Assembly (NCBI GenBank): GCA_965644295.1
Contig: CBFFRP010000297.1
Span: forward strand, 372,001 to 436,000
Reading direction: 5' to 3'
DNA from: Paraphysomonas bandaiensis
Lineage: Eukaryota; Protista; Chrysophyceae
DNA: 64,000 nt
In this document: piece after piece, positions 352-48,757 of the stretch
How positions within the stretch are numbered: position 1 is the first letter of the stretch
Layout: every line of letters starts with the position of its first letter
Notes under the pieces: model-generated
Databases searched by the model: none
Seen by the model: the letters and a program-made list of their open reading frames with translations, nothing else
Told to the model about the DNA's origin: nothing
Position numbers and translations under genes: made by a program

Positions 352-773
352 ATCGCCTCCCTCCGACATATTGCCATCAGAGAACAAGTCGCCACGCACT
401 CCATTATTGTTGATTACATGCCTACAACGAGATGCTGGCCGACATTCTAGCTAAACCTCAAACATCAAACACTTTCCGCAGATTGGGGGATTCACTTCTG
501 GGGGGGGGAGGCATCAACATACCAACATACCTGCTAGCAATAAAAGAACAAGAGTATCTATCCCACCGGCAGAGAACTCAACCAAAAGACCACGATTAAT
601 GACTTAGAGATCTACGGAGTTTCCCACGATTATGTTGTATGTTGACATCAGTGTAATCCACAATCTGTGATTGCACTCGTGGGTTTTAACCTCAGTAGAG
701 CTATCTCCAAATATATACACCTATATTCATAATATATCTATGTACGTCATATGATTATTTCATTGAGGGGAAG
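352..773 (+). mobile_element. 3' remnant of a Ty1/Copia element (RNase H end, 3' UTR, PPT)
   Basis: Frameshifted RHIAIREQVATHSIIVDYMPT/EMLADILAKP motif. PPT ttcattgaggggaag at ~759-773 resembles the PPT of the intact Copia. Confidence 0.75.
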
Positions 774-935
774 TGTTAAGATTCATTGATTCACGTATAT
801 ACCTCTTTATGCGTGAATATAACACATGTATACAAATAGACTGAATAATTACCAAACTATATAAGATACGCGACTGTACAAGATACGCACATGTGTGTGG
901 TTCTAACGCTCTGTTCAAACGTGTCTTGCTATTAT
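774..935 (+). repeat. 3' LTR (left part) of the Copia remnant, split by a hAT insertion; right part is 5543-5655
   Basis: Starts TGTTAAGATT after the PPT. Joined to 5543-5655 it aligns with the solo LTR at 45348-45781. Confidence 0.8.
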
Positions 936-1074
936 CAGGGCCAGTCAAAAATATATTGGATTTTCAATATATTGCTATTATTTATTCTTGATTGCTACAA
1001 TATATTGATTATTATTTTAGCAAAATTTGGCTTCGCAATATACTGCAATATATTGATATATTGTGTGTCTTAGA

Positions 1075-4000
1075 AAATATACTTGATTAATCATAAACGA
1101 CTCTTCATAATCACATAACTCATCTACTATATTTATAACATCGAACGATTATAACCTGTAATAAGTCTAAACAGTAAATAAGCAAGTGCCAGTAAAATGA
1201 TCGCCATATCCGCCCAAACTATAACACTAAACTATCACTGTACAGTATACGGTCCAAACTATTCGGCCATTATCTCTTTCATATTTATTACGTAGTAGTG
1301 AATGTCTGATTATTTAGCAATAGGCGTTGAGACCTTGCATCAATTAGTGGCTAGAAGAATGCTAGTCATACTAGTTAGACCACTACCCGTAACTAATCAA
1401 TACAAACTCTTTTATCCTACTATTTAACGCTACGAAAGCTGCTTGTGCGTCGCCGCAAGCACCAAGGTGCAACCACTTCCGTTCTTTTTGTGTGATATGA
1501 AATTCGCCTTTATGGTGTGTCCGTGGACTCACCGGCGCTATTGATCTGGGGGTCTCCCTTTGGGATGGGTCTCCATTGGTTTTGGAGGGGGCTCAGCGTT
1601 CTGAATTAGGGTCTTGAGTGCACCTAGTTCCAGATGTGTGGGTTGAGGGTGGTGGGGATTGTTGGGAGGAGGGGTAGGGTTTGTAGTCTGTGTTACTGTG
1701 CTCCTGTGGGGCCGCGGGTGTAGATAGAGTTGTCGAAGCCGTCGGCGTTGTGGAGGTCTGGGCAGTCCAGTGCTCTGTCGGGTAGGACCTGTGAGGTGTG
1801 CACGTGTGTCTGGAGTCGGATACGCTGTGGGGGGTCTTCGTTGGACCCCTAGTAGTCGAAGGACTCTCGGACGTTGTCTTGACTGACTGCGTTTCGGACG
1901 GGGTCTCGGGAGTAGCCTGGGCGGCCTTTTGGACATGGTGATATAGCGACAACCGCGATCCTGTAACATAAGCTTCGCTGCAGTGTAAAGCGGTTGCAGG
2001 AGATTAATAACCGCTGTTTCTATAGGTTCCGTAGACTGTGTGCCGTCAGGTGGTTGTGTATGGCATCTCCGAAGACCGTTTCCAGTTGGGCTGCTGTGAT
2101 GGTTCCAGTCCAGTATCTCTCGACCTGTGGGATGGAGGGATTCCAGGCTCTGCTGGAGAGTCTCCGTAGTGCAGATGTGATCCAGTTGGGTAAGGTCTGA
2201 GTTCTCTGTATTTCGTGGAGCACATTTTTATGCGATTGAAATGCAGTTTCCCGTATTTGGGTGATGGATTCATGTGTGCAGTCGAGGCACATATGTTTTA
2301 GGGAATCTAGTCGAAACCCGCAGTCAGAGCATGCGGCTTTGGTCAGGTCAAGCCCCTGTTTGGTTTTGGCCCGGTTCCTCCCTATGCAGAAAGATTTGTC
2401 CCATGTCAGTGCCGTGTTGAGTATTCTTTGGCGTAGATTTGAGCTGAGTTTGTCTTTGGGTGCACTGCCATCCGCTTGAGCTAGTTTGCGCGGGAGGTGT
2501 ACTCCGCTATTGGTCCACAGTAGCCAGGCGCTCGATCAGGATTGTGTCCGTAGCGTTGATCTCTGGTTGAAGTGTAGTTCTCAAGTGTCCTTAGGTCGCA
2601 GAGATCCTGGAAATTAGTAAGGAGTGGGCTAGAGTAGTATGGCCGTCTTGTACTGTGCATACGCCAGTGCCATAATCCAGCAGTTAGTAAGCGTTCGATG
2701 GCACTGTCAATCGCAATTGTACAGACAGTGTAGTTATTTTTTCCAAGGATGCGATCGAATTCATGCCAGTCTTCACCCGCAACTGCGTCCGCAATATAGA
2801 TGCCCTTGTCCTCAAACGTCTACTCCGTTTCATCTGTGGTACGTCGTTCGGGATGAGACCTCACCCAGGTCACCTGTCGTTTGCAATCTCTGCTGGCCGC
2901 GATGCTTTCGAGTAGTACCCCTTTTGCACGGTGACCGAGAGCTCTGCGTCTTGTGGAGAGTGCTTCCTCAGTGCGGGTGCACACTGCCTGACAGTCTGTG
3001 TGGCTTCTTATGTGTTCGGGAATACGTGTTGAGAGTATAAGCCCCATGGCTGTGCCTATGAGTTCATATGCGTATGAGTCCAAACCGGGCACGTCACGAA
3101 AGGGTGTATCTAGTCGTAGTATTGTGGTTGTACCATCTTCCCAGGCATTTTCTGGGGGTAAGTAGACGACCGCTGCACCTCCTCGGTGTGTCCATCGTGT
3201 TCGCGGATTGACATGAGTGAGGCGACGCGTGGAGAGCGCACTGGCTGTGTATGATCCATCTGTGAAGATAGCCTTGAAAGTATCTGGTTGGACACTATTA
3301 AGGCCGAGTTCTTGTTTTAGGTTGGTCAGCATGTGTTCATCCTGTGGTTCGGGGGGCTCAGGTTCCTGAAGGGTAAGGCCCAATTCCGTTCCCCATTCCC
3401 TGAGGCTGAGAACATAGTGGTGGTATTGGGGCTGTGGCTCTGTTGTCTGAGTGAGTAGAAAATGTGCTGCTTGACCTGCTTCTCCCCCGAGGGTTATTGC
3501 GCGCTGTAGAGATCCCCATTTTTGCTCCTGCGCCGAGTCTGAGAAACGTTTCATACCTAATCCGTTGTGCTTGAGTGAGAGGTAGATCAGTTCCGTGGGG
3601 TATCCAGGGCCTAGACTGAGGGCCTTTCTGTAGAGGGTTGCGCAAGCAGCGTCAATTTCTCTGTACCAGTGTAGCGGCCATGAAGCTTTGGTGGCTCTAT
3701 AGAGCAAAGTCGGTATGATTTGGGTCTCGATAACCATGACTTTACAGCCGGCTGAGGCCTGTTTAATCCCTAGGTGTGTGGTCACGACTTTCAGGTATTT
3801 TAGACACCAGTCATGGGAGGCCTTGTCTGTGATTGTGAGAGGAAGGTCTGCTCCGAGGTAATGTATCGACTCTAGTGATGTTTGGATAGGGACTGGGTGT
3901 GGGCGCCATGACCAGTCGTAGAGAATGATGTAGCCAATGGGGTCGGAGGACTTGTTGGAATCCTGTAGGATCGGAAACACTGTGCAAACTACTTTGGGGA

Positions 4001-4390
4001 TAGAGAGTTCCATTCCCGAAAGTACGCAGAACGCAGATATTTGTTGGGCAATGAGTTGGGCAGCGTGTATGGATTTAGCTATTGTGTTAAGATCATCCGC
4101 GAAGGAGATCTTTATTTCGCCGGTAGTCGGAGTCGTGAGTTGAATAGTTGGTAACGTTGGACTCGTTGTTGACAGTTCAATGTCCAGCCACGTGAGAAGG
4201 ATGTCGTAGAGTGCCACCCAGGCGCATGTGGATTCTGTGCCCCCTTGGGTGATACCCCTTTCGGCTTCGAAACCCAGACTGAATAGTGCAATGAAGTGGC
4301 CGTCTGCGGACAGGAGGTCAAGGAGAGAACGTGGCTCTATGTTGTTTGCCATGAATGGTGTCCAGGGAAATGTTAGACCGCCGGCATCTA
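1075..4390 (-). mobile_element. 5'-truncated non-LTR retrotransposon (LINE) with RT, RNase H and CCHC knuckle; disrupted
   Basis: ORF 2820-4415 has RGITQGG and FADDL (RT) and FTDGS, AYEL, HTDC, WVRSHPE (RNase H). It continues past an in-frame TAG as GIYIADAVA, then CSDC...KHMCLDC near 2340-2280. Element ends are approximate. Confidence 0.88.
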
Positions 4391-4542
4391 AGTATTTATT
4401 ACGTACAATATGCATGTGAACAGCAGGCGAAGAAACTGATTGTTCTTATTACTTTGACAGTATAGTTCAGTGGGTTGATTCTTCATCTCTGCTCATGATG
4501 AGTTTTGATGGATTCATTCCTCTGAGTTCATTATTTCATTAA

Positions 4543-4620
4543 AAGTAAACATTTTGTAAACGTGGGAATTTTACGAAGTTTTTGGAAAAACTAGGGGGTT
4601 TTAAAGTATTCATGTACTGT
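4543..4620 (+). mobile_element. Truncated copy of the MITE at 45459-45627
   Basis: aagtaaacattttgtaaacgtgggaattttacga matches the MITE left end. Confidence 0.7.
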
Positions 4621-4769
4621 AGAAGTGTTTCAAAAGCTATTATGTTTGTGTACGATCGTAGTGTTATTATTAAGCAAAGAGGCAACGAAAAATATCAGTG
4701 TGGTGTGGCACATACAGAGTATGTTTTCAACAAAGCAAATCATAGAATCTTTTTCCCTGTCCCAGATTC

Positions 4770-5250
4770 CCACCTCTCCGTAGATGCTGATATAGTTCAA
4801 AACCCTACCTTCGATAAGGCCATTGTGAAGATCAGAATGAATACGAAGAATCTCTGACTCGTCAAGAGAGAGAGCAGCGGTTGCAAGATTTCAACGGATG
4901 CAGAAGAAGCTGAATCACTGGATAGTGCCGTCGAAGTGGCAAATGTAAGAAACGCTGCTGCTGCTTTTAATAGCCACAGAGCTACCAAGAAGTTACGATT
5001 ACAGCTTGACACCCAGTATTGATCGACCACAAGCACATATTCAGTACAACTAATGTTGTGGAGCGTTTGTTCAGCAGAGCCAATATTATCATGACACACT
5101 TGCTACAAGGAGGAATAACCCTACGACCCCTCCAACTGCTGCTGTTTCTTCGCTTCAACAAGCACTTGTGGACCGCAAATACAGTGCAACAGGTCATCGA
5201 TGATGGACGGTTCGATTATAAGAATGAGGACGACAGTGGCGAAGAGTTGG
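4770..5250 (+). pseudogene. hAT transposase C-terminal remnant (dimerisation domain)
   Basis: HLSVDADIVQNPTFDKAIVKI and IFSTTNVVERLFSRANIIMT...LLLFLRFNKHLW, followed by an acidic tail. Confidence 0.85.
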
Positions 5251-5358
5251 AACTAGTTGTTGCATTGTTATTAGATTTTCAGCATAATGTTTTAACCTCT
5301 ACTAACTAGTTTAATACTACCGATCAAGCTCGTTTCTTCTTTTAGCGCCCAATATATA

Positions 5359-5428
5359 AGAAAGTCTGATTATTACATGAGAACGGTTGTGTATATCTAT
5401 AGACTGACTAAGAACTGGACTTGCTATA
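5359..5428 (-). mobile_element. Short retro-insertion (3' end of a non-LTR element or SINE-like)
   Basis: 16-bp TSD tagcgcccaatatata at 5343-5358 and 5429-5444. Near-identical to the insert at 44987-45110. Confidence 0.8.
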
Positions 5429-5542
5429 TAGCGCCCAATATATATCAATATATTGCAACATATTTAATAATTATTATTGGTCTTGAAAATATTATTATTT
5501 ATTTTTATTTGCAATATATTGTTGACTGGCCCTGGCTATTAT

Positions 5543-5655
5543 ACTATTAGGCCTTATCCTTCATGTGAAATATATATGTACATTCAATCTTTATCTCTGA
5601 TATAATATACGAAGTGCATCTTTACTAAATACCAAGACTACTGTAAATCTTATTT
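5543..5655 (+). repeat. Right part of the split Copia LTR (continues 774-935)
   Basis: actattaggccttatc...aagacta..taaatcttattt matches 45691-45781. Confidence 0.8.
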
Positions 5656-9650: not shown

Positions 9651-9664
9651 ATTACTGACTAGCT

Positions 9665-9903
9665 AAATAAGATTTAAGCTTATTAGTAAAACAATGTTGT
9701 GATTATTAGAGTGAAAATTATGAATAACAATATAGAACGTACTATCATGCACAACGGAATAGTTAGAAGTGTAACTGATAATGACGACGTTATGATGACG
9801 ATCACGTATCTTCGACAGATACTCTCTCTAATTCAGTTCATGGTATATTTCATTGAACATTATAACTCACAGATACAATCATGTATTAAGCTGAATCCTA
9901 ATA
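9665..9903 (-). repeat. 3' LTR of the intact Copia
   Basis: Direct repeat of 15108-15346; preceded on the minus strand by PPT cattgagggggtg (9904-9916). Confidence 0.95.
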
Positions 9904-10135
9904 CACCCCCTCAATGAAATAATCAGTGAACCGTAGATAATAGAGAGAATATGAACTTATGCACACTGAGAGTAAAAACCAGAGTAGCAGTCACTAGTCA
10001 ATAATAAGCGAACTGCAGAGATGCCATATTGTGAGACCATCCTTCTAGTCCAGCATCATGTATTGAATAAAAGTAAAAAAAAATGGTAAAAACTCCGTGT
10101 AACTCAAACTAGCCACCTAGGTCGCTTGTGGCTTG

Positions 10136-13100
10136 TTAATTGTGATTTAGGTGTCTCTGAGGTTGTTGATCGCTTCCTGTTGTTGCTGGATGGGATGTCG
10201 AACCCAGCTCCCCCATCAATGTAGTTCGCAATTGAAGAAAATTAGTTGCTCCTAGTGGTTTCGTGAGAAGATCGGCTAACATTGACGTGGTGGGAATATG
10301 GTCAACAGTCAATTGGTTTTCGGCAATATTTTCTCGAATGAAATGATACCGTATCGCAATATGTTTCGTACGACGATGATGAGTAGGATTGTAACATAAT
10401 TGGACTGCCCCTTTATTATCGCACCAAATAGTTGTTGAGAATGGAAGTTTGAAACCAATTTCTGATAATAAAGAGCGTAGCCATAATGCTTCCTGAGCTG
10501 CTGACGATAGAGCCATATACTCAGCTTCAGTAGATGACAATGCCACAGTTGTCTGTAATCGAGATTGCCATGATATAAGACAATTACCTATGAAGAATGT
10601 AAAGGCTGTAGTGGACCGTCGAGTGAGGTGACACCGTGCCCAATCGCTATCGCAGTATCCTGACAATGTTATGTGGGATCCAGAATATATCAATCCTTGC
10701 TTAGCAGTGCCTTTGAGATACCTAAGAACATGTAACGCAGCATTACAGGTAGTTAGATTAGGCATATCAGAAAATCTGGCAAGAGTATTGACTGCATAGG
10801 CGATATCCGGTCGAGTGCATACAGCTAGATACATTAGGGAACCTATGAGCTCCTTGTAGGGGAAATTCTGAACATAACTTTGATTTGACTCTGAAAGATG
10901 ATTGTATTCATGTAAATCATAGTTGAAAGACAGTAACATAGGTGTTGACATGGGTTTACTGTTAGACATGTTGAATTTGTCCAGTAACTTTCTGACGTAC
11001 TGCTCCTGACTGAGAGTCGTGATATTTTTGTCAAAATCTTGATGAATGGAGATGCCCAAGTAATAGTCTAGGAGTCCGAGATCCGTAATTTCGAACTTTT
11101 TGGATAAATGGTCTTTGAATTGTTGGATATCAGTGTCGGATGTAGATGCTATAATAATATCATCCACATACATGGCTATTAGCATAATCCTGCCATTAAT
11201 CTGCTTTTTGAATATACACGGGTCAGATATTAGTCTGGTGAAACCCATATCTAGCATAAAATTTGTACAGCACTTATACCAGTTAAGACCTGCTTGCTTT
11301 AGACCGTAGATGCTTTTCATCAGTTTGAGGACTTTTCCGTCAGGGACGTCCATGCCAGGAGGGGGATACATGTATATGTTCTCTTCGAGGTCAGCATTGA
11401 TGTACGCAGTTGTGAAATCGATTTGGTGCAATTTGAGTTTCATAATAGTCGAAAGGGCAATAATTGTACGTAGTGATGTAGCCTTCGCGACGGGGCTGTA
11501 TGTATCATTATAATCGATGCCTTGGATTTGAGTAAAACCCTGTGCGACTAGTCGAGCCTTGAATTTGATATCATTCTGTTTTCTTTTTATTTTGAATATG
11601 AGTTTCCCCTTTATGGCTCTTGCTCCAGGTGGTAACGCAGTGTATCTCCAGCACCCTTTCCTCTGAAGAGTGGATATTTCTCTATTGATAGCATCGATCC
11701 ACTGCTGTTTATATTTACCTGAAATAGCATCTTGAACACTCTTTGGTGTATCGGTTAGCTCGTCAATGTCATCGCAATTACTGATAGCATGCATAACAAT
11801 ATCAATATTGTTTGTATGTAATTTTGATATACATTGTGTGTCATGTGCCATATGATTTACTACATGTTTAGCATTTACATCACATGTATATACACCATCA
11901 CCTAGTTTGTGTATATTTACAATTACCCGTTTCCTGGCCATTCTCCTGCTTCGGAGAACACTCTTTCTACCAGCTAAAAATTGTTGTTTTGCTGTAGCAC
12001 GGACCTTACTTGGCCCTTCAGGTGTACCCTGATTTTCCCAATCTCCCGATGAATCAGCAGACTTGTTACCGCGTTTGGCCATACGCTGGTGCACACGATC
12101 CACTTGACCGTGTGGTGCCGGATTCGGCACTAGATTCCCATTGAATTGTTTCGGAGGGCGAGTCTTCGCTATCTTTGCATCGGAGTGGGTAGGTTCACAC
12201 CGATGGCTGCTGATTCTCTCCTGCGCGGCATCATGATGTCTGAGATTCTCGCCACTCCCCCTGGAAGTAGCGGCTGGCGCTGGAGATCCAATAACTGTAT
12301 CGGGGTTTTGATCTGATTTGCTGGATTTATGTATTGGGGTTTTCGATCGAGACGTAATACATTTGAGACCAACTGCTTTGAGTTCTATGTATACTTCAGT
12401 GTACTTTTCGACGTCTGCAGCATGAATGGGGTCTTCGAGCTGGATGAGTCGTATCTTGTCACCGCTGTCGTCCACTAGACCACGATACGCTGCGATTAAT
12501 CCTTTTCTGAGCTTTATTTGAGTCGTTACATATGTTAATCCATCGTCTGGATCTACATGAGCTAGACCTATGAGATATTTGAAACTTTCTACTGTCCTGG
12601 TGGTCTCATTCTCCCTGAAGATCTCATTTATCTCCTTAAAATATCTCTTATCCGCTGGTGGAACACATTCGTTGAAAAATACATGTCCTGATATAACAAA
12701 ATCTCTTAATGCGGGAACAAAGACTATATATCCAGGACCATCCTCTCGATAGCCCATAAAATACCCAGGCCAGCTATGTCTGTCCCAGTTGTTCTTTCGG
12801 AGACTGGAATCGATATTCACAAAGCATTTACATCCCCATATTCTGGCATAACTCAAGTCTGGTATTTCGTTTTCGATGAATTGGAGTGGGGACATAAATC
12901 CTTTAGCTGTTTGACACGGTAACCTGTTCTTGATGTGTATTGTCGCCCTTGAGGCTTGTTCCCAGAAATTCGGTGGGAGTCCAGAGTCGATAAGGCTGCT
13001 GAGTGCTCGTTCTTTAGTTGTCCGCCATGATCGCTCTTGGAATGGGTTATCCTCAGGGGTATACGGGGAGTTGAAAGTCCATGTAGCCCCTATTGATTGA

Positions 13101-15097
13101 AGATACTCTAGAACTTTTTTTGATACCAGTTCCTTCCCGCCATCCGCATGATAATGTTGTAGGCGTTTGCCTTTACTATGTAGATACATAACAACTTTCT
13201 GGATGGATTGGATGACAAAATCTTCATCTCTCGTTGGTCCGTAGGAGTCCCATTGGTGTCTGGAAGCTACATCAGTCATCCCGAGTATGTAACGGTTGCC
13301 AGTAATGATTGCCTCTGGTGCATGAGGTCCAGAAAAATCGGCTACTACTAGCTCCCCCAGCTCATTCGCTCTTCTTACACGCTTGAGCAGCATTTGTCTG
13401 ATAGCGTGTCTATGTTTTCGGCGATGAGATTTACCACTAGCACAACCATCACATAGGCCACCCGGTAAAGAAGTAGCATTCATCTCCGACTTCGTTAACT
13501 TAATACCCGTTACTAATTTTGACTGTACAGCTTTCTGTATGAGTCCAATTGAAGAATGTGCCAATCTCTTATGTGCTAGAGTTGCGAGTGGACCTGAAGC
13601 AGTTGAAGCAAGGTGGGATTCGTCAATAGGAGTACCGAGGTCTGTTAATGGAATTTCATATAGGCCTCCAACTCTCTTACCCTTTGATAGCAGTATTTCA
13701 TCTTTATATATCTCAACTGATTGGTTTCCGAACAAGATTTTATACCCTAGGTCATCTAATTGGCTGATGGACACGAGTGTCCTCGAAGCATGGTCCACGT
13801 GCTTGCACTTGGGGATAATACCAAGTCTTCCATGTCCTGAAGAGGTCATAGTCGATCCTGACTTAGCTGTTTGAATGTCGGTGAGGCATTCCTCATAATT
13901 GGTGATGTATCCGGCTTCAGGTGTGATGGAGACTGTGCAGCCAGAATCAAGGGTTCCCATTCCGGCTTCTTGATCAAAAACGAAGTTCGTTTCGTCGTTT
14001 GTTGGATATCCGACTCCTCCGAAGTCTCGTCCTTTCTGTTGTAGTGGACCACTGTCTTCATAATCTGCAAACTGGTCGGATTCGTCGTTTTCAGTGCTCT
14101 GGTGGGTCTGGAATCTAACTTTTTTGAATTTCCTACTGGTTGATTTGTTTCCAGAGGAACTCTTCATTTGTTGGATCCTTTCCCATGAGTGTTTGCATTC
14201 TGAAGCGATGTGTCCTTTTCCATCGCATCGGAAACACTTAATGTCCTTGTCAGTTCTCTTGTCATGTTTCGGTTTATTGGAACGGTTTCTGAAAGATGTC
14301 CCCTTTTTGCGCTTGGAATTCACTTTACTTTTGAAAAATGGGGGTTTTGAGGCTGCAAGCTGAATACTGTCGGTTTTTGTTTCTTCGTTGCTTGACAAGA
14401 GCATTCCTACAGACGAGCTTCCTAATCCGCGTAGTCTGCGTATGAGTGTTTTGTAGTCATCGATAGGGTGCATCTGCAGGTTGATCGCCAGTTCACGATA
14501 CGTCATATTTTCTTTGGATACCAGGCCTTGTCGAATGCGTGATATGAGATCTTGATCACTTATCCGATGACCATAATTAATCAGCTTGTTTCTGAGCTTT
14601 TCGACAGCGTCAAGAAAGTTGATTATCGACTGACCTTTTTTGATTTTTATGCTCTGAAACTGGCCAATCAGATCGGTGATTACATCGTTAGTCGTTTTTT
14701 CTTTGAAGTGGTTGAGCAAGTCCGTCCAGGCGGTTTTTCCGTCTCCATCGGGGACGTTCTCCAAAATCCCCTCAGCCTCTTCATCCTGACCAATGATAGA
14801 GCTTGCAATGACTGACCATAGGTAGTTATTACCTTCATCATAATATCGTTTCGCATCCTGATACTGTTCGAGTCGATACTGGTAGTCCTCGTCATCTGAG
14901 TTTTCTCCTGCTTCAGGCTCAATTGGGTGATCGTTCTGTAGAGTATAAACGATCTTAGGCTTTCTGTAAAACCATGCACGGCACTTCTTCTGCCACTTGG
15001 AGAAGTTCTTCGCGTCGAACTTTGGCATTGAGTCTTTCTGTTTTTCGGTTGTTGAATCCGAGTCGGTTGAGTCGTAACTTGTAACTTTAACTGACAT
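10136..15097 (-). CDS. Copia Gag-Pol polyprotein (1653 aa)
   Basis: CCHC CFRCDGKGHIASEC; protease LDSGCT; integrase HKRLAH..CDGC and D(ADFSGP)-D(ADGGKE)-E(QER); RT DFTTAY, YGLKQ, YVDD; RNase H DSDWA, STEAEY, CDN, ADLLTK. IN-RT-RH order is Copia-type. Confidence 0.97.
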   Translation of the reverse strand: MSVKVTSYDSTDSDSTTEKQKDSMPKFDAKNFSKWQKKCRAWFYRKPKIVYTLQNDHPIEPEAGENSDDEDYQYRLEQYQDAKRYYDEGNNYLWSVIASSIIGQDEEAEGILENVPDGDGKTAWTDLLNHFKEKTTNDVITDLIGQFQSIKIKKGQSIINFLDAVEKLRNKLINYGHRISDQDLISRIRQGLVSKENMTYRELAINLQMHPIDDYKTLIRRLRGLGSSSVGMLLSSNEETKTDSIQLAASKPPFFKSKVNSKRKKGTSFRNRSNKPKHDKRTDKDIKCFRCDGKGHIASECKHSWERIQQMKSSSGNKSTSRKFKKVRFQTHQSTENDESDQFADYEDSGPLQQKGRDFGGVGYPTNDETNFVFDQEAGMGTLDSGCTVSITPEAGYITNYEECLTDIQTAKSGSTMTSSGHGRLGIIPKCKHVDHASRTLVSISQLDDLGYKILFGNQSVEIYKDEILLSKGKRVGGLYEIPLTDLGTPIDESHLASTASGPLATLAHKRLAHSSIGLIQKAVQSKLVTGIKLTKSEMNATSLPGGLCDGCASGKSHRRKHRHAIRQMLLKRVRRANELGELVVADFSGPHAPEAIITGNRYILGMTDVASRHQWDSYGPTRDEDFVIQSIQKVVMYLHSKGKRLQHYHADGGKELVSKKVLEYLQSIGATWTFNSPYTPEDNPFQERSWRTTKERALSSLIDSGLPPNFWEQASRATIHIKNRLPCQTAKGFMSPLQFIENEIPDLSYARIWGCKCFVNIDSSLRKNNWDRHSWPGYFMGYREDGPGYIVFVPALRDFVISGHVFFNECVPPADKRYFKEINEIFRENETTRTVESFKYLIGLAHVDPDDGLTYVTTQIKLRKGLIAAYRGLVDDSGDKIRLIQLEDPIHAADVEKYTEVYIELKAVGLKCITSRSKTPIHKSSKSDQNPDTVIGSPAPAATSRGSGENLRHHDAAQERISSHRCEPTHSDAKIAKTRPPKQFNGNLVPNPAPHGQVDRVHQRMAKRGNKSADSSGDWENQGTPEGPSKVRATAKQQFLAGRKSVLRSRRMARKRVIVNIHKLGDGVYTCDVNAKHVVNHMAHDTQCISKLHTNNIDIVMHAISNCDDIDELTDTPKSVQDAISGKYKQQWIDAINREISTLQRKGCWRYTALPPGARAIKGKLIFKIKRKQNDIKFKARLVAQGFTQIQGIDYNDTYSPVAKATSLRTIIALSTIMKLKLHQIDFTTAYINADLEENIYMYPPPGMDVPDGKVLKLMKSIYGLKQAGLNWYKCCTNFMLDMGFTRLISDPCIFKKQINGRIMLIAMYVDDIIIASTSDTDIQQFKDHLSKKFEITDLGLLDYYLGISIHQDFDKNITTLSQEQYVRKLLDKFNMSNSKPMSTPMLLSFNYDLHEYNHLSESNQSYVQNFPYKELIGSLMYLAVCTRPDIAYAVNTLARFSDMPNLTTCNAALHVLRYLKGTAKQGLIYSGSHITLSGYCDSDWARCHLTRRSTTAFTFFIGNCLISWQSRLQTTVALSSTEAEYMALSSAAQEALWLRSLLSEIGFKLPFSTTIWCDNKGAVQLCYNPTHHRRTKHIAIRYHFIRENIAENQLTVDHIPTTSMLADLLTKPLGATNFLQLRTTLMGELGSTSHPATTGSDQQPQRHLNHN

Positions 15098-15107
15098 CTC
15101 GCTACCA
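15097..15107 (-). promoter_or_regulatory. Primer-binding site, probably for initiator tRNA-Met
   Basis: TGGTAGCGAGA directly abuts the 5' LTR. TGGT-AGC is the complement expected for an A1:U72 initiator tRNA 3' end. Confidence 0.75.
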
Positions 15108-15346
15108 AAATAAGATTTAAGCTTATTAGTAAAACAATGTTGTGATTATTAGAGTGAAAATTATGAATAACAATATAGAACGTACTATCATGCACAACGG
15201 AATAGTTAGAAGTGTAACTGATAATGACGACGTTATGATGACGATCACGTATCTTCGACAGATACTCTCTCTAATTCAGTTCATGGTATATTTCATTGAA
15301 CATTATAACTCACAGATACAATCATGTATTAAGCTGAATCCTAATA
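15108..15346 (-). repeat. 5' LTR of the intact Copia
   Basis: Apparently identical to 9665-9903. Confidence 0.95.
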
Positions 15347-15392
15347 TAGCTGACTAGCTACAAGCAACTTCCGAAGTCAAGGAATTGCACCT

Positions 15393-15880
15393 TGTTATCA
15401 ATAATTAGTATATAATTAACTCCTTTTTGTAACTATAATCACCCGTTACACCTATGAGTTGGCTTCACCTATTGCACACTATTAACTCACTTCAATCGCA
15501 CAATATATAATATATATCACATCATATTGTAGAACTCAACACTCCCACTCAATTGGATGTAGTTAACCATTCTAATATTTGTGAAGAACATTTCTATCGG
15601 ATACGCAACCACCGAACCTCATAGGACACTGGTGAACGTATAACTCCGCTGATATAGCTAGCTCCCACCATTCATTCACACTTAACTGGTTACGACGAGC
15701 TCTCCTTATCTTGGGTACCGCTGCGATAGTTTCTTCAGTAGTCTTAAATTTTTCCCCAAGATTTCGCTCCCTCTGTTCAGTAAATATTGGACCACACGTA
15801 GCCTTGGTGTATATATCAGCCATCTGTTGTCGACTGCTCACATGAATAAATTTTGGTAAGCGAGGACTACCTGTAGTGTA
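15393..15880 (-). mobile_element. 3' fragment of another Copia (RNase H end, PPT, ~149-bp TG..CA LTR at 15393-15541)
   Basis: FIHVSSRQQMADIYTKA motif; PPT gagtgggag followed by TGTTGAG...TAACA. Confidence 0.75.
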
Positions 15881-15939
15881 GACTGAGTAAAAAGGCAACG
15901 GGGGTATTCCGTCCGTATACGATCTGTAGCATCCGTTAA

Positions 15940-18900
15940 CGTTTAGACCGAGTACCGTGTTTTTTCTCTGCGTAAGAGGAAATTATGAAGAAAACAACAA
16001 AGAGAGATATCCCAGATATCCAAGATCTGGAAGAAGGCAAGAGTCTGACAGTTATGACGCAGTGCCAATGCTAAGATATGGCGCAAACTGTAATCTGCCT
16101 ATCTTCAAGCAGAAATTGGTGGCCGAAGCCATGGTGAGGTACGGAGACCTTGCAAAGGTGAGAGATGAGATGAGAAAAACTGTGCGGTGACCCTAACGAA
16201 CGCATTCACATCCGGAAGCTACCCATTCGAGTGGTACGAGGTACTGCTACATAATCAGGCGGACGTATCAGTGGTCCACCCTGCATTACTGCACAATATA
16301 AGGCCGGTGACCAGAAAATGTACCGTGGCAGGGCTCTCAGGGCACGCTATGGAGCTGCCAAACGTAGGAGATTTGGATCAATTCTTTCCCTGCACAACGG
16401 TTGATCATTTACGTGCGAGTGTGCTATGCCAATCAGATGTGGAAGACATGTACGATGTGACATATGTGAAAGGCAACTCGTACACTGTCCACTTACCTGG
16501 CAGAGATCTGGTATTCGCACGAAGAAACAAAATGTACGTGGCTGATATGCGAGACTGGGCCACTGGAAACGTACATGTCACAACAGCAGCTGACATGGAA
16601 GCGAGGCACTCGAAGGCCGAAGTGGCCCGAGCACGAGAGGCATGGGACCTAATCAAGACCTCAGGATTTGACTGAGAAAGACGCAATCAACTTAGTCAGT
16701 GATGGCAACATAACAGGACTGAAACTCACGCAAGTGACGTACGGAGAGCATTCGAAATATATGGAACCCCATACGAGTCAGTGCGCGGAAAGCACACTCA
16801 CAGAAAAACGGGGCGCCAGTACGTAGACACCGCACTGAAATCGGAGATGCAGCGAGAGCAGAGGCTCTACTCAGACATTTTCAGCGTGCGACAGCAGTCC
16901 TTTCTTCTCACGATGGCGGAGCCACTGGGAGTGTCAGTAGTCGCTGCAGTACAGAATGAGACAACAGAAGCATTAGGCCTCGCACTACAGGGACACGTTA
17001 ATCTGCTACGGAGCTACGGGTATGTGCCGACCATCGCTTACCTCGACCCACAACCTGGCTTCAAACCACTCCGAGGGCAGATTACAGGGGTGGAGATAGA
17101 CGGGAGCAGGCGACCACCTCGACAAAATTGACTCAAAAATACGACGCCTGAAAGAGAAGATCAGGAGCATTCATGCAGGACTACCGTGGGATTTACCTGA
17201 CGTCAACGTAAAAGATCTGGTACGGTATGCGAACTGCAGGATGAACCTGAGAAGGCCATCCACCAATGGGTCAACGGTAGCGCCGCGAGTGGCATTGACA
17301 GGGATCAAACCGAATTTCAAAAACGAGCTGGCTCTCGCATTCGGCGACTACGTGGAGTGCTACGACCCGAAGGTCAAGAGCAACGACGCAGAGCAAGACC
17401 GAACAGAACCGTGCATAGCCCTGTACCCTGCATGCAACGCGAATGGTAGTTGGATTTTCCTAAACCTTAAGACAAACAAGTACGTCAGCAGAACAAACTG
17501 GAGGAAGATGATAACTACGCAGTTGGTGATAGACGCAGTGAACAAGATCGCAGAAGTAAATCGAAAAAACGCAAGGCACTCACCAGCTGTCACGGACCAA
17601 CCAGACCAGTGCGAACAAGCGCAAGACGACACCGCAGAGGGTGACAATGCAACTGCGATAACAGAGCATGAGAGCAATAATACCACAGAGATGAGCGAAG
17701 ACGCACCTGCTACAAACAAGTCAGAATCTGTGGGGCAAATGGGCGAGGAAGTGAGCCCAACGACTACCGGCAGTGACGCCCCTAATGAAATAAATAATAC
17801 AGAAGATATAACAGGGGTGGTACACAATACAATGAGCTCACCGTCACTAACAGAAGGAGAACAGCTGGTGCTATACGGAAACTAGTGATGTACCGTGCCT
17901 ATCACACGAGCATTACACAAGGGTTAAAGGAGCACGGCAAGGAGGCTTACCTACTAGCAATAATTGTGCGGGAGCTGAAGCAGCTGCTGCACGACAAAAA
18001 GGCCATAGTCCCAGTCCACCGGAGTGAGCTGACAAAGACCCAGCAGCTCAAAAGAATAATTCGGTCACTGATGTTCCTGAAAACCAAGTACTATGGCCTT
18101 GGGCGTTTCGAAAAAATCAAGGCCAGACTGGTGGCAAATGGTGCGCAGCAGGACAGAAAGCTGTACACCGATACATCGTCGCCTACAGTAGCTAGCGATG
18201 TAATCAGTATTTGCATGTCTAGCAATAGCAGCGAAAGAGATACGACATATTTCAACAGTGGACATAGAAGGAGCCTACCTGAATGCCGAGATGACCGGAG
18301 AAGAAGTCATTATGGAGCTCGAACCAATGCAAGCCACGATCCTGAAAAAGATGGGCCCAGCCATACAGCCACACATAGACGAGCGCGGAAGACTGCTGCT
18401 GGTACGATTGGACCGGGCCCTATACGGATGTGTTCAGAGTGCAAAATTGTGGTATGATACACTGAGGACGTACCTGGAGAGCATCGGCTTTGCAGTCAAC
18501 CCCATAGACCAATGCGTGTTCAATCGGACCGTCAACGGAAAACAATGCACAGTGACCCTGCACGTAGACGACCTATTAGTGATGTCACAGTGTGCAAGGA
18601 AGACACAGAATGGCTAGTGGCAAAACTAAAACAGCAATACGGCGAGGTGAAACACTGTACCGACCATGACATGTCGTATATGGTATGCATATAAATGTAC
18701 AGGACGGGAAGGCAGTGGTATCGATGAGGGCATACCTGGAGGGAGTGCTCGAGGAAACGGGGACCACAGGAGGGACGGCATCCCCGGCAACAGCATCTCT
18801 TTCACTGAGAAGTCCGAGCAGAAACTGGGCAAGAGACGCCGCAGAATTCCACACAGTAGTGGCAAAGCTGCTATACCTGGCGACAAGGGTGAGGCCGGAT

Positions 18901-19800
18901 ATTTTGCTGTCCATTGCGTACCTGGCTACTAGGGTGAAAGACCCTACGCAAGATGACAAGCAGAAGCTGGGAAGAGTGTTGAAGTACCTGGCGGCCTCCA
19001 AGAACCAGGATCTACACCTGCTGCGGATAGGAGATAAGACTCAGGTAAAAGCATACATTGACGCATCATTTGCGACACATCAGGATGGAAAGGGGCATAC
19101 CGGAGTGGTGGTCAGCGTGGGGGATGCGGCAGTGCTTTGTCGGTCGACAAAGCAGAAACTTGTCACTAAGGACTCCACTGAGTCGGAATTGGTCGCTCTC
19201 TCTCTGACATGATGCCATGTGTGATGAAATTGCATGAATTCCTGTGTGGTCAAGGGTGTAAAATGGACTCACATACAATATTCCAGGACAATGCGTCTAC
19301 CCTCAGCCTCGTAACGAAAGGAGGAGGCAAATACAGATCAAAATATCTGCGAGTAAGGCAGGCTTTAGTCAAAGAGCGCCATGATAGTGGGGGCGTGAAG
19401 CTTCAGTACTTACCTACAGGAGAGATGTTGGCTGATGTGCTGACTAAACCCCTACAGGGCAAATTGTTTCATCATTTGATATGTCTTATCGCTGGAGACG
19501 TATAGACACATCACAGGGGTGCGAAGAGAAATCAGACAGAGCAGATTGAGGATGTTCTTTTCAGTTTAGTACTTGAAGTGACTGTATAAGATATGCATAT
19601 AGGGCACATAGAAGTGTATGGTGTTATATTATGCAGTGTTTTGTACGGCTGTAGGCTAGAAGCATAATTTCCGAGTTAGATTCTCATCCAGCTCATCAAA
19701 GGGAGACCCATCATCACCTATGTCACTTTCGAGCTCCATCTTAATTTCACAATATAGTACAATATAACTATATCGGAACTTCACATCTTACTTCAGCAGA
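15940..19800 (+). mobile_element. Degenerate, internally deleted Copia element resembling the diatom CoDi-type lineage
   Basis: Gag start, protease LL(H)NQADVSV, integrase, RT DIEGAYL/LYGCVQSA/HVDDLL, RNase H YIDASFATHQDGKGHTG, STESE, QDNAS, ADVLTKPLQG. Many frameshifts. PPT acaggggg then TG at 19521; LTR end uncertain. Confidence 0.85.
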
Positions 19801-27599: not shown

Positions 27600-30278
27600 T
27601 TATATATACATATATCATCAACATAAAAATTATAATATATATATCAACAGTAAATATATATATGCATCCACCTTCTGGCATGGATATCCCTGAAGAAGGC
27701 AAAGTACTCAAACTACTTAAAAGTATCTATGGTCTAAAAAGCAAACAGGTCTTAACTGGTATAAAAGTGCTGTACAAATTTTATGCTAGATATATATATG
27801 GGCTTTACCAGGCTAATATCTCACCCGTGTATATATTCAAATATAGCAGAATAATGGCAGGATTATGCTAATATAGCCATCATGTATATTATAGCATCTG
27901 CATCCGACACTGATATCCAACAATTCAAAGACCACTTATCCAAAAAGTTCGAAATTAAGGATCTCGGACTCTTAAATTATTACTTAGGCATTTCCATCCA
28001 TTAAGACTTCGATAAGAATAATATCATGACTCTAAGTCAGGAACTATATATATATGTATGTCACCAAAATACAGGACAAATTTAATATATTTTATGTCCA
28101 ACTGCAAACCAATGTCTACACCAATGTTGCTCTCATTCAACTATGATTTGCATGAATTCAATCATTTATCGGACTCGAATCAACGATATGTTCAAAACTG
28201 CTCATACAAGGAGCTCATTGGATCCCTGATGTATCTAGCTGATGAATGCACTCGACCGGACATCGCCTACGCAGTCAACACTCTTGCCAGATTTTCTGAC
28301 ATGCCTAAAATCTAACTACCTGTAATGCTGCGCTACATGTTCTTAGGTACCTCAAAGGCACTGCTAAGCAAGGATTGCTATATTCTAGATCTCACATAAC
28401 ATACATTGTCAGGGTACTGCGATAGCGATTGGGCGCGATGTCACCTCACTCTACGGTCCACTACAGCATTTACATTCTTCATAGGTAATTGTCTTATATA
28501 ATGGCAATCTCGATTACAGACAACAAGTGGCATTGTCATCATCTACTGAAGCTGAGTATATGGCTCTATCGTCAGCAGCTCACAGGAAGCATAATATGGC
28601 TATGCTCTTTATTATCAGAAATTGGTTTCAAACTTCCATTCTCAACAACTATTTGGTGCGATAATAAACGTGCAGTCCAATTATGTTACAATCCTACCCA
28701 TCACCGCCGAACAAAACATATCGCGATTCGATATCACATTATTCGAGAACATATTTCCGAGAATCTATTGACTGTTGATCATATACCCACCAAGTCAATG
28801 TCAGCCGATCTTCTTACAAAACCACTAGGAGCAACTAACTTTCTCACATTGCAGACTACATTGATGGGGGGGGGCTGGGTTCGACATTCCATCCAGCAAC
28901 AACAGAAAGCGATCAACAACCTCTGAGACACCCAAATTACAATTACCAAGCCACAAGCGACCTAGGTGGCTAGTTTGAGTTACATGGAGTTTTTACCACT
29001 TTTTTATTATTTAGTTTTGTTCAATACATACATGATACTAGACTAGAAGGGTGGTCTCACAATATGGCATCTCTGCAGTTCACTTATTATTGACTAGTGA
29101 CTGTTACTCTGGTTACTCTCAGTGTGTATATAGTTATATTTAACCACGGGCAATAAGGAGGCTATATCGTCCCGCGCTCAAAATTTTGAAACGAGGGCGA
29201 AAAGCCCGAGTTTTAAAATTTTGACAAGGGACGATACTCTTATCCCTAGGTTAAATTGTAGCTTATCCTCATGACGTTGAAACGTTAATATTACATTGTA
29301 TAGCTATTTGTAGCATGCTTGCTGTATAAAGAAATAGATGTTCCCTGATTAACATTAAGAACACAAATGAGAACTCAAATCAATGATATGTATACTGTAA
29401 GTGTGAGAATGAATGTGAACAGTTGAAGGTGAAAGAGAGGCTTCTTATTCCCTTAATTAGCATCATCATCACATTAATATACAGCAGGCTTTACCTTTGC
29501 AAGTGCATCTGATCGAATGATGTGTGTATGATATGAGGGCACACAATATCATGAGAAGCACGATATGGCTCAAACCCTGAAAGAACTGGGTGTCACTGCT
29601 CCTAACCACCTATCTAGCATCAGATACGGTACTTAAACTCTCCTGTAATGTCCTTGAAGTTGTTTCGAAGTCCTGGATATGAAGACAGATCACTTGCACT
29701 GACATCGTTGTGATCTTATACAGCAGTCGAAGGATGGAATTTAACTTGGAGTGTCTAATGGTTTAACTCATGATTGTGGTTTCTCTATAATTGTGTGTAC
29801 TATAATGAAATCACATATATACGACTGTCATTATCATACTTAGGATAGAAGTGAGCTTCTGTTGAACCCAATATTGAAGTTGAATGTCTATATTTGCCCG
29901 GTGCTGATATGAGCGCCCTGTTGAGACAAAATCAGGTCAAAAAAAAGCTTTTTTTGAGACAAAATGGGGATAAGTTCATATTCTCTCTATCATCTACGGT
30001 TTATTGATTATTTCATTGAGGGGGCGTATTAGGATTCAGCTTAATACAAGACAGTACCTCTGAGTTATAATGTTCAATGAAATATATCATGAACTGAATT
30101 AGAGAGAGTATCTGTTGAAGGTACATGATCGTCATTATCAGTTACACTTCTAACTATTCCGTTGTGCATGATAGTTATGTTTTATATTGTCATTCATAAT
30201 TCTCACTTTACTGTGTTCATCACTTACACTCTAATGATCACAACATTGCTTTACTATTACTAAGATCAATTCTTTATT
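27600..30278 (+). mobile_element. Degenerate 3' half (RT-RNase H, UTR, 3' LTR from 30027) of the same family as the intact Copia
   Basis: Near-identical peptides (KPMSTPMLLSFNYDLHE, HHRRTKHIAIRYH). The 3' UTR and LTR start tattaggattcagcttaatac match the reverse complement of 9665-10140. Confidence 0.92.
29131..29969. mobile_element. TIR-less ~840-bp insertion with a long subterminal hairpin (possibly Crypton-like, non-autonomous)
   Basis: Absent from the intact Copia 3' UTR; flanked by ata/ata; hairpin at 29138-29256; left end repeated at 55720. Confidence 0.7.
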
Positions 30279-33010: not shown

Positions 33011-33139
33011 GTACATATATATGAAATTGAACAAATTATTATTGTGTATTAAAGTGCTTCTAACTTATAATTTGTTCTCAATTTCACATCGGGATACTAT
33101 TTCCTGAATATTTTTTTAAATTCTTGTAGACTATGATAG

Positions 33140-34085
33140 TGTTGGAATACGTCTGGTTCTCTAAGATAGTACTGTAGAATACGTTAAATACAATGTGAAA
33201 AACAGTAATACGTAGTCAATAGTCAAAGGTGCTATATAGCTATAACTGTGAAACTGAGGTATTATATCATGACGATTCAAGATACGGAAGTTGAGCAGTG
33301 GTTGACATAAACGAACTAATTTATCATGTTGTTGACATGTGTTACATGACAACACACACAATTGTGTATACGTGTATACAATTATCATACCGTAATCTAT
33401 CTAGTTTGACTAACTTAAACTTCTCTTGAAACGGTCTTAATCATCTGAAAATGGTCAATACTCAATACGGTAGCGAATGCGGAGGAGAGAAGGAGGATAG
33501 AGCTGATGTTCCATGGTTCGACGAGAGCAACGTTGAGCAATGGATCGAAGATTTTGAGACGTTCCTTACGAGAAAGGAGCAGAGTGAGGTGGCTCTAGAA
33601 ATGCCACCAGAGGAAAGAGGACTTCGGAATTCAACCCCTGAACAGTCTTAAGACCAAGTCCTACAAGGAAGCGGTGGACAAGTATTGGAAGGCGAATGCA
33701 ATTGCTTCCTCATACTGCAGAGAGGCGATGAAGCGATCTCCGAAGGCGCTGCAGAAATTTCATCTGAAGCACAAGGAGTTCAAGGCAGCTGAAGGAAGGA
33801 TTAACAAGTTCAGCGCCAAAGAGATGGTTAGCACTTTGAAATCGTGTTTTGAAGGAGGAAAACAAAACAAGATTAGTGTTCTGCTCGCTCAGTTAGGATC
33901 ATATGAAGCCAGGGGAGACCACGAAAGAATATGTACTGCGTTTTGAGCTGCTTCTCCGTAAACTTCAGGCGCATAACCAAACGGTAACGGAAGAATCAAA
34001 AATTAGTCGGCTGAAGGAGGGAATTATCAGTGATGAATATGACGGTTTGAATTATGCCCTGTATTTAATGCCCGATGATGTATAA
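33140..34085 (+). mobile_element. 5' LTR plus frameshifted gag of an LTR retrotransposon
   Basis: Starts TGTTGGAATACG and is homologous to 44900-45804 (reverse). Gag-like peptides VPWFDESNVEQW and MKPGETTKEYVLRFELL..EESKISRLKEG. Confidence 0.75.
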
Positions 34086-37600: not shown

Positions 37601-37982
37601 AAGAATTAACTTTCTTGTCAACCTTCCCTTCTTCTAACGAATTTATAGCGGCCGGCTTGCGAAATATGTGAGCAGTGATGCCGCCCTTGACAGCCTGTAT
37701 GTGGAGACCGCCGTCACAGTCGATTACAGCCAAATTCGATTTATCCAAAAACTTCACTTTAACGGGGCCGACATACGGCGTTCCTCTATTGTCCCCAAAC
37801 AACGACAGCACTGACCTGATAGTATCATCATCACAGGCTATCATACAATCCCACAGAGGTATACACACACACCTGTTCCTCCCGACATGATAGTAATCCC
37901 TACCAATCATATCACTCAACCAGACACGATCGTATACTCACATCACGTACGCTCTGGGTGCAGATTGCCCAAAAAGAGTCAT
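34676..37982 (-). CDS. Multi-exon NHL-repeat (beta-propeller) protein with an SH2-like insert and an unknown C-terminal region
   Basis: NHL motifs IAVCDSISNTIK, CERDSDRVMVL..FGTSGILPGEFDRPTSVAC, VVDYNNRRVQVF, LREPTSVAFTSTGELCICDY, LQYPVSVSVSSDGKIAV. Start and some exon limits are inferred. Confidence 0.75.
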
Positions 37983-38044
37983 AACATAAACACACGGGCC
38001 TCAACTGTCCATACAAGTAAAAGCTACTGCAGAAACCGCTCTGT

Positions 38045-38313
38045 GTGTATGTATGTATGTATGTATGTATGTGTATGTATGTATGTATGTATGTATGTAT
38101 GTATGTATGTATGTATGTATGTATGTATGTATGTATGTATGTATGTATGTATGTATGTATGTATGTATGTATGTATGTATGTATGTATGTATGTATGTAT
38201 GTATGTATGTATGTATGTATGTATGTATGTATGTATGTATGTATGTATGTATGTATGTATGTATGTATGTATGTATGTATGTATGTATGTATGTATGTAT
38301 GTATGTATGTATG

Positions 38314-38345
<32 letters not shown>

Positions 38346-38748
38346 TGTATGTATGTATGTATGTATGTATGTATGTATGTATGTATGTATGTATGTATGT
38401 ATGTATGTATGTGTATGTATGTATGTATGTATGTATGTATGTATGTATGTATGTATGTATGTATGTATGTATGTATGTATGTATGTATGTATGTATGTAT
38501 GTATGTATGTATGTATGTATGTATGTATGTATGTATGTATGTATGTATGTATGTATGTATGTATGTATGTATGTATGTATGTATGTATGTATGTATGTAT
38601 GTATGTATGTATGTATGTATGTATGTATGTATGTATGTATGTATGTATGTATGTATGTATGTATGTATGTATGTATGTATGTATGTATGTATGTATGTAT
38701 GTATGTATGTATGTATGTATGTATGTACATAGGTAGGTAGGTATGTAT
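38045..38748. repeat. (TATG)n microsatellite, ~700 bp
   Basis: Direct reading; it explains the spurious MYVC/HTYI ORFs. Confidence 0.99.
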
Positions 38749-38834
38749 GCACACATGGCAGTTGAGTTAGCAGAAGCGCTATTGGTGAGGTGACATCGAA
38801 GCGCCGATAACGTTCAACACTCGTTGACCCAATA

Positions 38835-39569
38835 ATGAGTGATAGCGTGAGCTCTACCCCTATTCTTCAGGGATGGATGAAGAAGAAGGGTCATCTGGTT
38901 AAGAATTGGAAGGAGCGGTTTGTTGTGGTGACTGACGACAAGTTATCATACTATGTTGACGCTAAAATGACGAAAAAGAAAGGAGAAATTTCTCTGAATA
39001 AGAGCACTAGAGTATTGACGAGGGATGGAAGAACACACCCCTGGAAGTTCGGCATATCTGATGGCAACTCATTTTTAGAACTCTCAGCAGCTTCTGAGAA
39101 GGAACGAAGCCTCTGGGTGAGAGTACTGAAGGTTCATTTAGGTATTGAAGAAGGGAGGGAATATGCTCTTTCAATGTCTTCTGTTAGTCAAGATTCAGAA
39201 GTAGGATCTCTTTCATTCACGACCTTCGTTCGTGAAAACGATAAAATAGATACTTTACACTCATTGCCCCCTCAGCCAGAAAATGTATCCACGACTGATA
39301 TTAGTAATATGCAACCAGTGTTAAATGATAAACCGAATGAGCCTGCTAAAGTGAGACCCCACATAGATTTTTCTGCATGTGATTCCGATGATGATGATAG
39401 TGAAAATGAGAGTGGAAGTTCATCTGTGATAGTTTCGCAAGATAACTGTGCAGCTCCGTCTCAATTCGCTATCGTCGAGACGGGAAGTAAGACATCGCTT
39501 GAACCATCTCTAGTCGCTGAAGAGTACCTGTCACTATTACCTGACCTCGACGATTTGCTTACTAAATAG
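38835..39569 (+). CDS. PH-domain protein with an acidic, Ser-rich C-terminal tail
   Basis: LQGWMKKKGHLVKNWKERFVVV...KGEISL...LSAASEKERSLWVRVL. Confidence 0.9.
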   Translation: MSDSVSSTPILQGWMKKKGHLVKNWKERFVVVTDDKLSYYVDAKMTKKKGEISLNKSTRVLTRDGRTHPWKFGISDGNSFLELSAASEKERSLWVRVLKVHLGIEEGREYALSMSSVSQDSEVGSLSFTTFVRENDKIDTLHSLPPQPENVSTTDISNMQPVLNDKPNEPAKVRPHIDFSACDSDDDDSENESGSSSVIVSQDNCAAPSQFAIVETGSKTSLEPSLVAEEYLSLLPDLDDLLTK

Positions 39570-48150: not shown

Positions 48151-48302
48151 AATATAAGCTGACACTACACCCACACCCCACTACTAGATGATATGCTGGA
48201 AATAAATTCGTTTGCAAATCAAGACTGCGACGCTATAACACTGATTGCCCCATCCGCACCTTAATAACTAACAGACAACCACAAAGACAACACACAGAGT
48301 AA

Positions 48303-48757
48303 CATACATACATACATACATACATACATACATACATACATACATACATACATACATACATACATACATACATACATACATACATACATACATACATACA
48401 TACATGCATACATACATACATACATACATACATACATACATACATACATACATACATACATACATACATACATACATACATACATACATACATACATACA
48501 TACATACATACATACATACATACATACATACATACATACATACATACATACATACATACATACATACATACATACATACATACATACAATACATACATAC
48601 ATACATACATACATACATACATACATACATACATACATACATACATACATACATACATACATACATACATACATACATACATACATACATACATACATAC
48701 ATACATACATACATACATACATACATACATACATACATACATACATACATACATACA
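48303..48757. repeat. (CATA)n microsatellite, ~455 bp
   Basis: Direct reading. Confidence 0.99.

Follow-up and report, generated by a model that had tools for sequence, protein, structure and literature searches.

We report a Ty1/copia long terminal repeat (LTR) retrotransposon whose LTRs begin with TA and end with TT in place of the canonical TG...CA, located in a stretch of 64,000 nucleotides from the chrysophyte Paraphysomonas bandaiensis (contig CBFFRP010000297.1, positions 372,001 to 436,000; hereafter the window, in whose own coordinates all positions are given). The element is intact and recently inserted. Its TT end is shared with a diverged sister family in the same window, and in both families a proline replaces an otherwise conserved glycine in the integrase loop ahead of the catalytic glutamate. 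This loop change is, from the comparison of sequences, a candidate cause of the altered ends.

Structure of the intact element

The intact element occupies positions 9665-15346 on the minus strand. Its 5' LTR (15108-15346; family 1, subtype A) and 3' LTR (9665-9903) are identical over 239/239 nt, the identity continues for 0 nt beyond either edge, and comparison of the flanks reveals a 5-bp target-site duplication (TSD), TAGCT on the plus strand, on both outer sides (5' copy at 15347-15351, 3' copy at 9660-9664). In the orientation of the element each LTR reads TATTAGGATT...AATCTTATTT. The primer-binding site (PBS) TGGTAGCGAG (15098-15107, minus) directly adjoins the TT end of the 5' LTR with zero spacer, and the polypurine tract (PPT) TTGAGGGGGTG (9904-9914, minus) directly adjoins the TA start of the 3' LTR. 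The PBS partner is likely the initiator-Met tRNA; no tRNA genes were found in the window. The 10-mer AATCTTATTT has four occurrences over both strands of the window, every one of them at an LTR end, while Markov models of the window predict 0.22-0.24 occurrences. Boundaries shifted by a 2-nt trimming of the TT or by a longer TSD were rejected on comparison of LTRs and flanks.

A single open reading frame (ORF) of 1653 aa (10136-15097, minus, read from 15097 to 10136) encodes Gag, a CCHC zinc knuckle, the protease (PR) motif DSG, integrase (IN; H509 H514 C549 C552 and D587 D652 E688), an SH3-like domain, a reverse transcriptase (RT) and an RNase H (RH). The order Gag-zinc knuckle-IN-SH3-RT is that of Copia, with the integrase ahead of an RT of the RVT_2 type (E=5e-67), while PR and RH were placed by motif and alignment. 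The direct LTRs with TSD, the order Gag-PR-IN-RT-RH, the PBS and PPT, and the intact HHCC and D-D-35-E motifs of the integrase are all those of a Ty1/copia element; the canonical TG...CA ends are lacking. Features of the non-TGCA Copia class are present as well, namely several independent copies with TSD-bounded non-TGCA ends and a short LTR of 239 bp.

An 8-bp direct repeat (9657-9664 and 15352-15359), older than the insertion and possibly the footprint of a DNA transposon, overlaps the target site. The element also sits just within what appears to be the 3' LTR of a third and older Copia family (15352-15982, minus), in which an RNase H end, a PPT at 15552-15542 and an LTR start TG at 15541 were recognised and the far end was not found.

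The ends in public sequencing runs

The ends were checked in contigs or unitigs of 7 distinct public runs out of 24 (among them X1, X3, X5, X6, X7 and X11). Run X1 is perhaps the window's own sample and was excluded from the independent evidence. At least half of the element's sampled words were present in 16 of the 24 runs, mostly marine metagenomes. Two poly(A) metatranscriptome runs contained 58-62% of these words, which suggests that the element is present as RNA.

At the TA end, contigs with differing flanks come to loose ends at 9903, 26 of them in X1 (agreement 0.42), five in X5 and one in X7; another X7 contig breaks at 9904, where the first flank base matches by chance. One X5 contig tracks the flank exactly up to 9664 and then diverges from the LTR, like an empty allele. 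At the TT end, an X11 unitig has its start precisely at 15108, where a different flank also joins, and X6 had no coverage at the LTR end. The end ...CTTTATT of a second subtype of the family, subtype B, abuts the PBS in X11 and X5 and was also found as loose ends in 11 X1 contigs and as the start of one X3 unitig. A further X5 contig has changes within the last four bases but, with the register kept, still ends in TT. Among the variants listed for the terminal positions, in runs with hundreds to thousands of contigs, there was neither a TG nor a CA. Single-unitig depths in X5 (4.5 for the flank, 141 for the internal region and 379 for the LTR) suggest, as a rough figure, that the family is present in tens of copies. 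Contigs of X3, X5 and X7 in which ~20 nt from the beginning of an LTR (starting TA, next to another flank) are fused to the 3' internal region (10030-10064) represent a common deletion derivative.

Further copies and a sister family

Subtype B of the same family is represented by a 5'-truncated copy (27653-30278, plus) with an RT-RNase H remnant, a PPT and a 3' LTR (30027-30278) that starts TATTAGGATT and ends CTTTATT, the end at 30278 being positioned by alignment and reads. The remnant is 85% identical in DNA to the intact element, and third codon positions hold 81 of the 129 substitutions, which argues that the source lineage transposed under selection. The TT was retained although the subterminal sequence changed.

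A second family is found as a 3' remnant (358-5655, plus) consisting of a broken RNase H end (71-85% identical to P0004, the polyprotein that represents this family), a PPT and a 3' LTR that runs from 774 to 5655, split by a 4.6-kb insertion at 936-5534. This LTR starts TGTTAAGATT, that is with TG, after the PPT and ends AATCTTATTT at 5655. The same family has a solo LTR, TATTAAGATT...AATCTTATTT, at 45348-45781 (plus) with 4/5 bases of its TSD matching. At an uninterrupted paralogous site near 33121-33230 (minus), both flanks of the solo LTR match (56/62 and 21/23 columns) around a single target copy. Precise ends repeated at many sites across runs from several studies, along with a solo LTR that has a TSD and whose paralogous site is empty, are hallmarks of integrase action.

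The 4.6-kb insertion carries terminal inverted repeats and an 8-bp TSD (928-935, 5535-5542) and is hAT-like; an ORF inside it (2820-4445, minus) had no Pfam match and by eye resembles part of a non-LTR retrotransposon, namely its RNase H and the C-terminus of its RT. The solo LTR contains an insertion of ~170 bp (45459-45627) that is partly like 4543-4610.

All U5 ends in the window (5/5) are TT. The U3 start is TA in family 1 and either TG or TA, in register, in family 2, and the register between the ends and a subterminal inverted repeat, AATC(C/T)T, is preserved. The polyproteins of the two families (P0004 for family 2) are 58% identical, and a tree built from the RT-RNase H region of 155 sequences places the families as sisters (support 1.0). 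Their LTRs align best over the terminal 13 nt (E=0.003) and elsewhere show only weak traces of similarity. Because the diverged sister family has the same last 13 nt, the TT at U5 is, judging by these alignments, older than the family split, and was inherited and did not arise by decay.

An initial annotation of the window had fixed the TA...TT ends by the TSD, and the flanks in independent runs do break at the same bases. Its view that identical LTRs and an intact ORF make decay unlikely agrees with the 239/239 nt, the 1653 aa and the TT of the sister family, and the second family that it described, ending in the same AATCTTATTT at 5655 and 45781 and starting TGTTAAGATT or TATTAAGATT, was recovered as such. 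Mis-assembly of the termini, which it had named as a possible flaw to be sought in reads, did not occur, with X1, X5 and X7 breaking at 9903 and X11 at 15108.

The integrase loop

The loop ahead of the catalytic glutamate reads PEDNPFQER in the intact element and PQQNGVAER in most Copia. It spans P681-E688 (PEDNPFQE; 13034-13057, minus), with the codon of Pro685 at 13045-13043. The integrase profile aligns without gaps at the loop to prototype foamy virus (PFV) integrase, such that Pro685 corresponds to Gly218, Pro681 to Pro214 and Arg689 to Arg222, in a PFV numbering counted from the PFV motif. Ty1 likewise has a glycine at the position of Pro685. The proline is common to P0002, P0003 and P0004 and is thus present in both families; the comparison of residues near the catalytic glutamate called for by the initial annotation pointed to Pro685 in place of the loop glycine. 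Of the PDB sequences, 7z0h_W (E=1e-20), presumably Ty1 integrase, matched the integrase profile best, and an AlphaFold model of the integrase (mean pLDDT, the predicted local distance difference test score, of 65) matches retroviral integrases.

In a core-domain tree of 226 sequences, the clade surrounding the two families (support 0.96) retains glycine at this site in 9 of 51 integrases and has Ser, Ala, Pro, Cys or Thr in the other 42/51. Outside the clade glycine is kept in 165/175 and lost in 10/175. A Microbotryum protein of the set (P0061) has retained the glycine. The motif could be aligned in 251 of 259 BLAST hits (293 sequences), of which 226 were long enough for the integrase tree; L014 was omitted as a near-duplicate of L013, and P0132 was omitted since its motif is apparently frameshifted. 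Within the clade of 51 integrases the LTR ends are known for the two window families only.

Hare et al. (2010) reportedly described a base-specific contact between the Gly218 carbonyl and the guanine opposite the C of CA. In PFV, the Pro214-Gly218 segment wedges between the strands of the viral DNA and is stacked against the terminal adenine (PMC6784120). The integrase of Ty1 requires the terminal dinucleotide in cells (PMC2939329), and a lineage without CA therefore suggests a changed enzyme.

Relatives in metagenomes

A search of metagenomes with the integrase profile gave 10 loci from 209 candidates, none of which had two full LTRs and a TSD. The same profile yielded 0 confirmed loci from 42 candidates in viral contigs. 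A 17-mer across the LTR end and PBS matched six viral loci, 0 of them with a Copia protein (chance matches), and a 20-mer from the LTR start matched neither prokaryote genomes nor viral contigs (0 in each). In three of the relatives (L007, L010 and L015) TATT stands immediately after the homologous PPT, the start in L007 being ambiguous as its PPT ends in TG. The third Copia remnant in the window has TGTT after the same PPT as L015. L013 and L014 are circularly permuted Copia contigs with a stop between gag and pol, which is also found in L009 and L012; these are two-ORF or read-through relatives within the same integrase clade.

Other features of the window

A fragmented, distant Copia-like pol at 16169-19502 (plus) is 26-29% identical to the RT-RNase H of the intact element. 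Long tandem arrays of 8-bp units lie at ~37800-39600, 48190-48900 and 59500-60800 and generate spurious ORFs. Host genes encode a subtilase with EGF and PT repeats (52541-55435, plus), an RCC1-ankyrin protein (46183-48180, minus) and an anoctamin (50148-51738, minus). The anoctamin has a 100% match in a collection of marine-protist transcriptomes, and those of its 37 hits that carry names are labelled as stramenopile (53% to an entry assigned to Ectocarpus, 47% to a chrysophyte). This suggests a stramenopile, possibly chrysophyte-like, host, and the runs suggest a marine one.

Proposed mechanism and alternatives

It appears somewhat probable that the element's own integrase joins ends that lack CA, and that loss of the loop glycine relaxed the requirement for a terminal CA with the ends drifting thereafter. 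Because the PBS directly abuts the TT end, no base ahead of the PBS is lost on insertion, and the stagger is 5 bp. Reverse transcription primed by tRNA would yield a complementary DNA (cDNA) with the terminus ...TT-3' at U5 and either ...TA-3' or ...CA-3' at U3, which would be joined without trimming at U5, as is blunt-ended Ty1 cDNA. The subterminal AATC(C/T)T inverted repeat would position the integrase, for which either T (at U5) or A (at U3) would serve as the attacking 3' base. The change from Gly to Pro, Ser or Ala may first have loosened the reading of CA, and the terminal bases may have drifted later. The initial annotation had proposed a whole lineage with changed integrase specificity. 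The ends do prove to be a lineage trait, with the last 13 nt shared at 58% polyprotein identity, and both families have a proline in the loop as a candidate change; a clean switch is contradicted at U3, where a family-2 copy keeps TG.

Several observations weigh against a relaxed integrase as the source of these ends. The integrase belonging to the family-2 LTRs of the window is taken from P0004 and was not read in the window itself. The U5 end was fixed in 0 of the 10 metagenome relatives, and aligning the LTR regions of three of them also gave none. L013, with Ser at the loop site, is readable as a canonical TG...CA element with a 3-nt spacer, and one diverged X5 copy appears to end in TG, not TT. 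The loop change represents one or a few inherited events, and the clade counts are not independent evidence. The AlphaFold model has a pLDDT <50 at residues 199-227, which comprise the loop, and is thus unreliable on loop geometry. Non-TGCA elements in lotus often cluster with TGCA ones, as would result from recent mutation without a special enzyme (PMC9804982), and purified Ty1 integrase is rather relaxed in vitro (PMC2939329).

The last two points also favour an account by ordinary tolerance and drift, to which we assign a lower, though appreciable, likelihood. The Copia integrases would then take imperfect ends within virus-like particles, mutation of the ends would be neutral, U5 would be kept for a reason at the RNA level such as priming beside the PBS, and the loop change would be unrelated. 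The TA...TT ends do satisfy all four positional rules derived from lotus (T first, then a purine, C/G/T in third place and A or T last; PMC9804982), lotus elements with different ends group together, and the subterminal bases differ between subtypes A and B. Such drift is harder to reconcile with a TT kept over two families that are 42% diverged, with the lack of a CA variant among the terminal variants listed in the runs, and with the loss, in this clade, of a loop glycine that is otherwise conserved. A true switch, in which the integrase now demands the new ends and refuses CA, would agree with the TT at all five U5 ends in the window and with the strong conservation of the terminal bases between families. 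It is nevertheless improbable, because the family-2 copy at 774 starts with TG and a CA-3' U3 end was accordingly integrated, although later back-mutation in this old copy is possible; U3 and U5 moreover offer different 3' bases (A versus T). The integration of this TG-start copy is the reason why relaxed specificity is preferred over switched specificity.

Mobilisation in trans by another relaxed integrase, or entry without an integrase, is very improbable. Further Copia families do occur in the window, but the integrase motifs of the element are intact, its 5-bp TSDs and ends are sharp, and subtype B bears the mark of coding selection. Least credible of all is that the boundary was mis-called, that the element was mis-assembled or that it decayed from true TG...CA ends, for instance with the TG of the PPT as the LTR start. 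The PPT of the intact copy does end in TG right before TATT. This start was rejected, however, as the LTR is preceded by CG in the copy at 30027 and by AG in the copy at 774, where the TG of the LTR is in register with TA. The 5' LTR has flank and not TG at that place, no CA is found within 10 nt of the PBS, and many flanks break at 9903 and 15108 in independent runs.

A relaxed integrase, if this reading is correct, invites a wider proposal that we regard as unlikely but worth stating. The loop glycine equivalent to PFV Gly218 would be the switch that enforces a terminal CA in LTR retroelements, and a large, mostly environmental Copia clade (the 51 integrases) would have lost it and would transpose with free TA or TG starts and TT-type ends, largely missed by finders based on TG...CA. 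On why a terminal CA is so nearly universal among LTR elements and retroviruses, and on how some Copia escape it, the plant papers, in their available parts, only speculate about integrase. A young intact element with both ends changed and a single candidate loop residue makes the question reducible to a simple assay, and the element would help to test how integrases recognise their DNA ends. LTR finders restricted to the motif would register too few members of this apparently multi-copy family and, probably, of its relatives in protist genomes.

Comparison with known systems

Non-TGCA Copia elements and the idea of a diverged integrase are already known, and TA...TT is a further variant of this class. 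The initial annotation had considered the described exceptions to be few, which the literature contradicts. In plants, 870 non-TGCA elements of seven motif types were reported from 42 of 50 genomes (10.1101/137141), and in lotus 26% of Copia are non-TGCA with eight end types (TGCT, TGGA, TGTA, TGGT, TACA, TACT, TATA and TGTT; PMC9804982). Known plant ends include those of Tos17 (TG..GA), AtRE1 (TA..TA) and TARE1 (TA..CA) (10.1101/137141; PMC9804982). Copia families with TG...TT and AA...CA ends have been reported, a diverged integrase being proposed for TG...TT (Yin et al. 2017, PMC5659011), and three of 26 diatom Copia families, CoDi3.2, CoDi4.2 and CoDi4.3, are without TG/CA (Maumus et al. 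2009, PMC2806351). TA...TT Copia ends were not found in the literature searched, a weak absence since most subscription papers and Repbase lay outside the search.

The element resembles the plant non-TGCA Copia in its short LTR (239 bp, with a plant average of about 270-320 bp) and in its TA start, which is known in plants, and TATT obeys the lotus rules. In contrast, TATT, with 3/4 bases changed, is absent from both plant end lists as available. Most cases in lotus also look recent, whereas the trait here covers two families and is accompanied by a defined change in the integrase loop.

As in Ty1, the stagger is 5 bp, and Ty1 cDNA is joined blunt; unlike here, Ty1 ends in TG...CA, needs these ends in cells and has kept the loop glycine. 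The single ORF, the LTR of ~235 bp, the 5-bp TSD and the tRNA-Met-type PBS right after the LTR are reminiscent of GalEa (Donnart et al. 2017, PMC5445492). GalEa has TGT...CA ends, the PBS TGGTAGCAGAGC and the protease motif DTG(C/A), as opposed to TA...TT, TGGTAGCGAG and DSG in the present element. Membership in GalEa was rejected, as PBS, protease motif and LTR ends all differ. CoDi3.2, CoDi4.2 and CoDi4.3 are likewise stramenopile Copia without TG/CA; they were compared by description, as no sequence labelled CoDi was among the hits, and one of them could be TA...TT.

The TGTT subfamily of Rosaceae (PMC5659011) shares with the element the Copia order, short LTRs (152-266 bp there), the TT at U5, ends defined by a TSD and recent activity. 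It differs in its TG start and in belonging to the plant Ale lineage. The element has no named close relative in the trees; it groups (support 0.995) with five environmental proteins and lies apart from the plant proteins of a set that holds no labelled Ale reference. Family 1 starts with TA, and one copy of family 2 has the TG...TT ends known from the Rosaceae subfamily.

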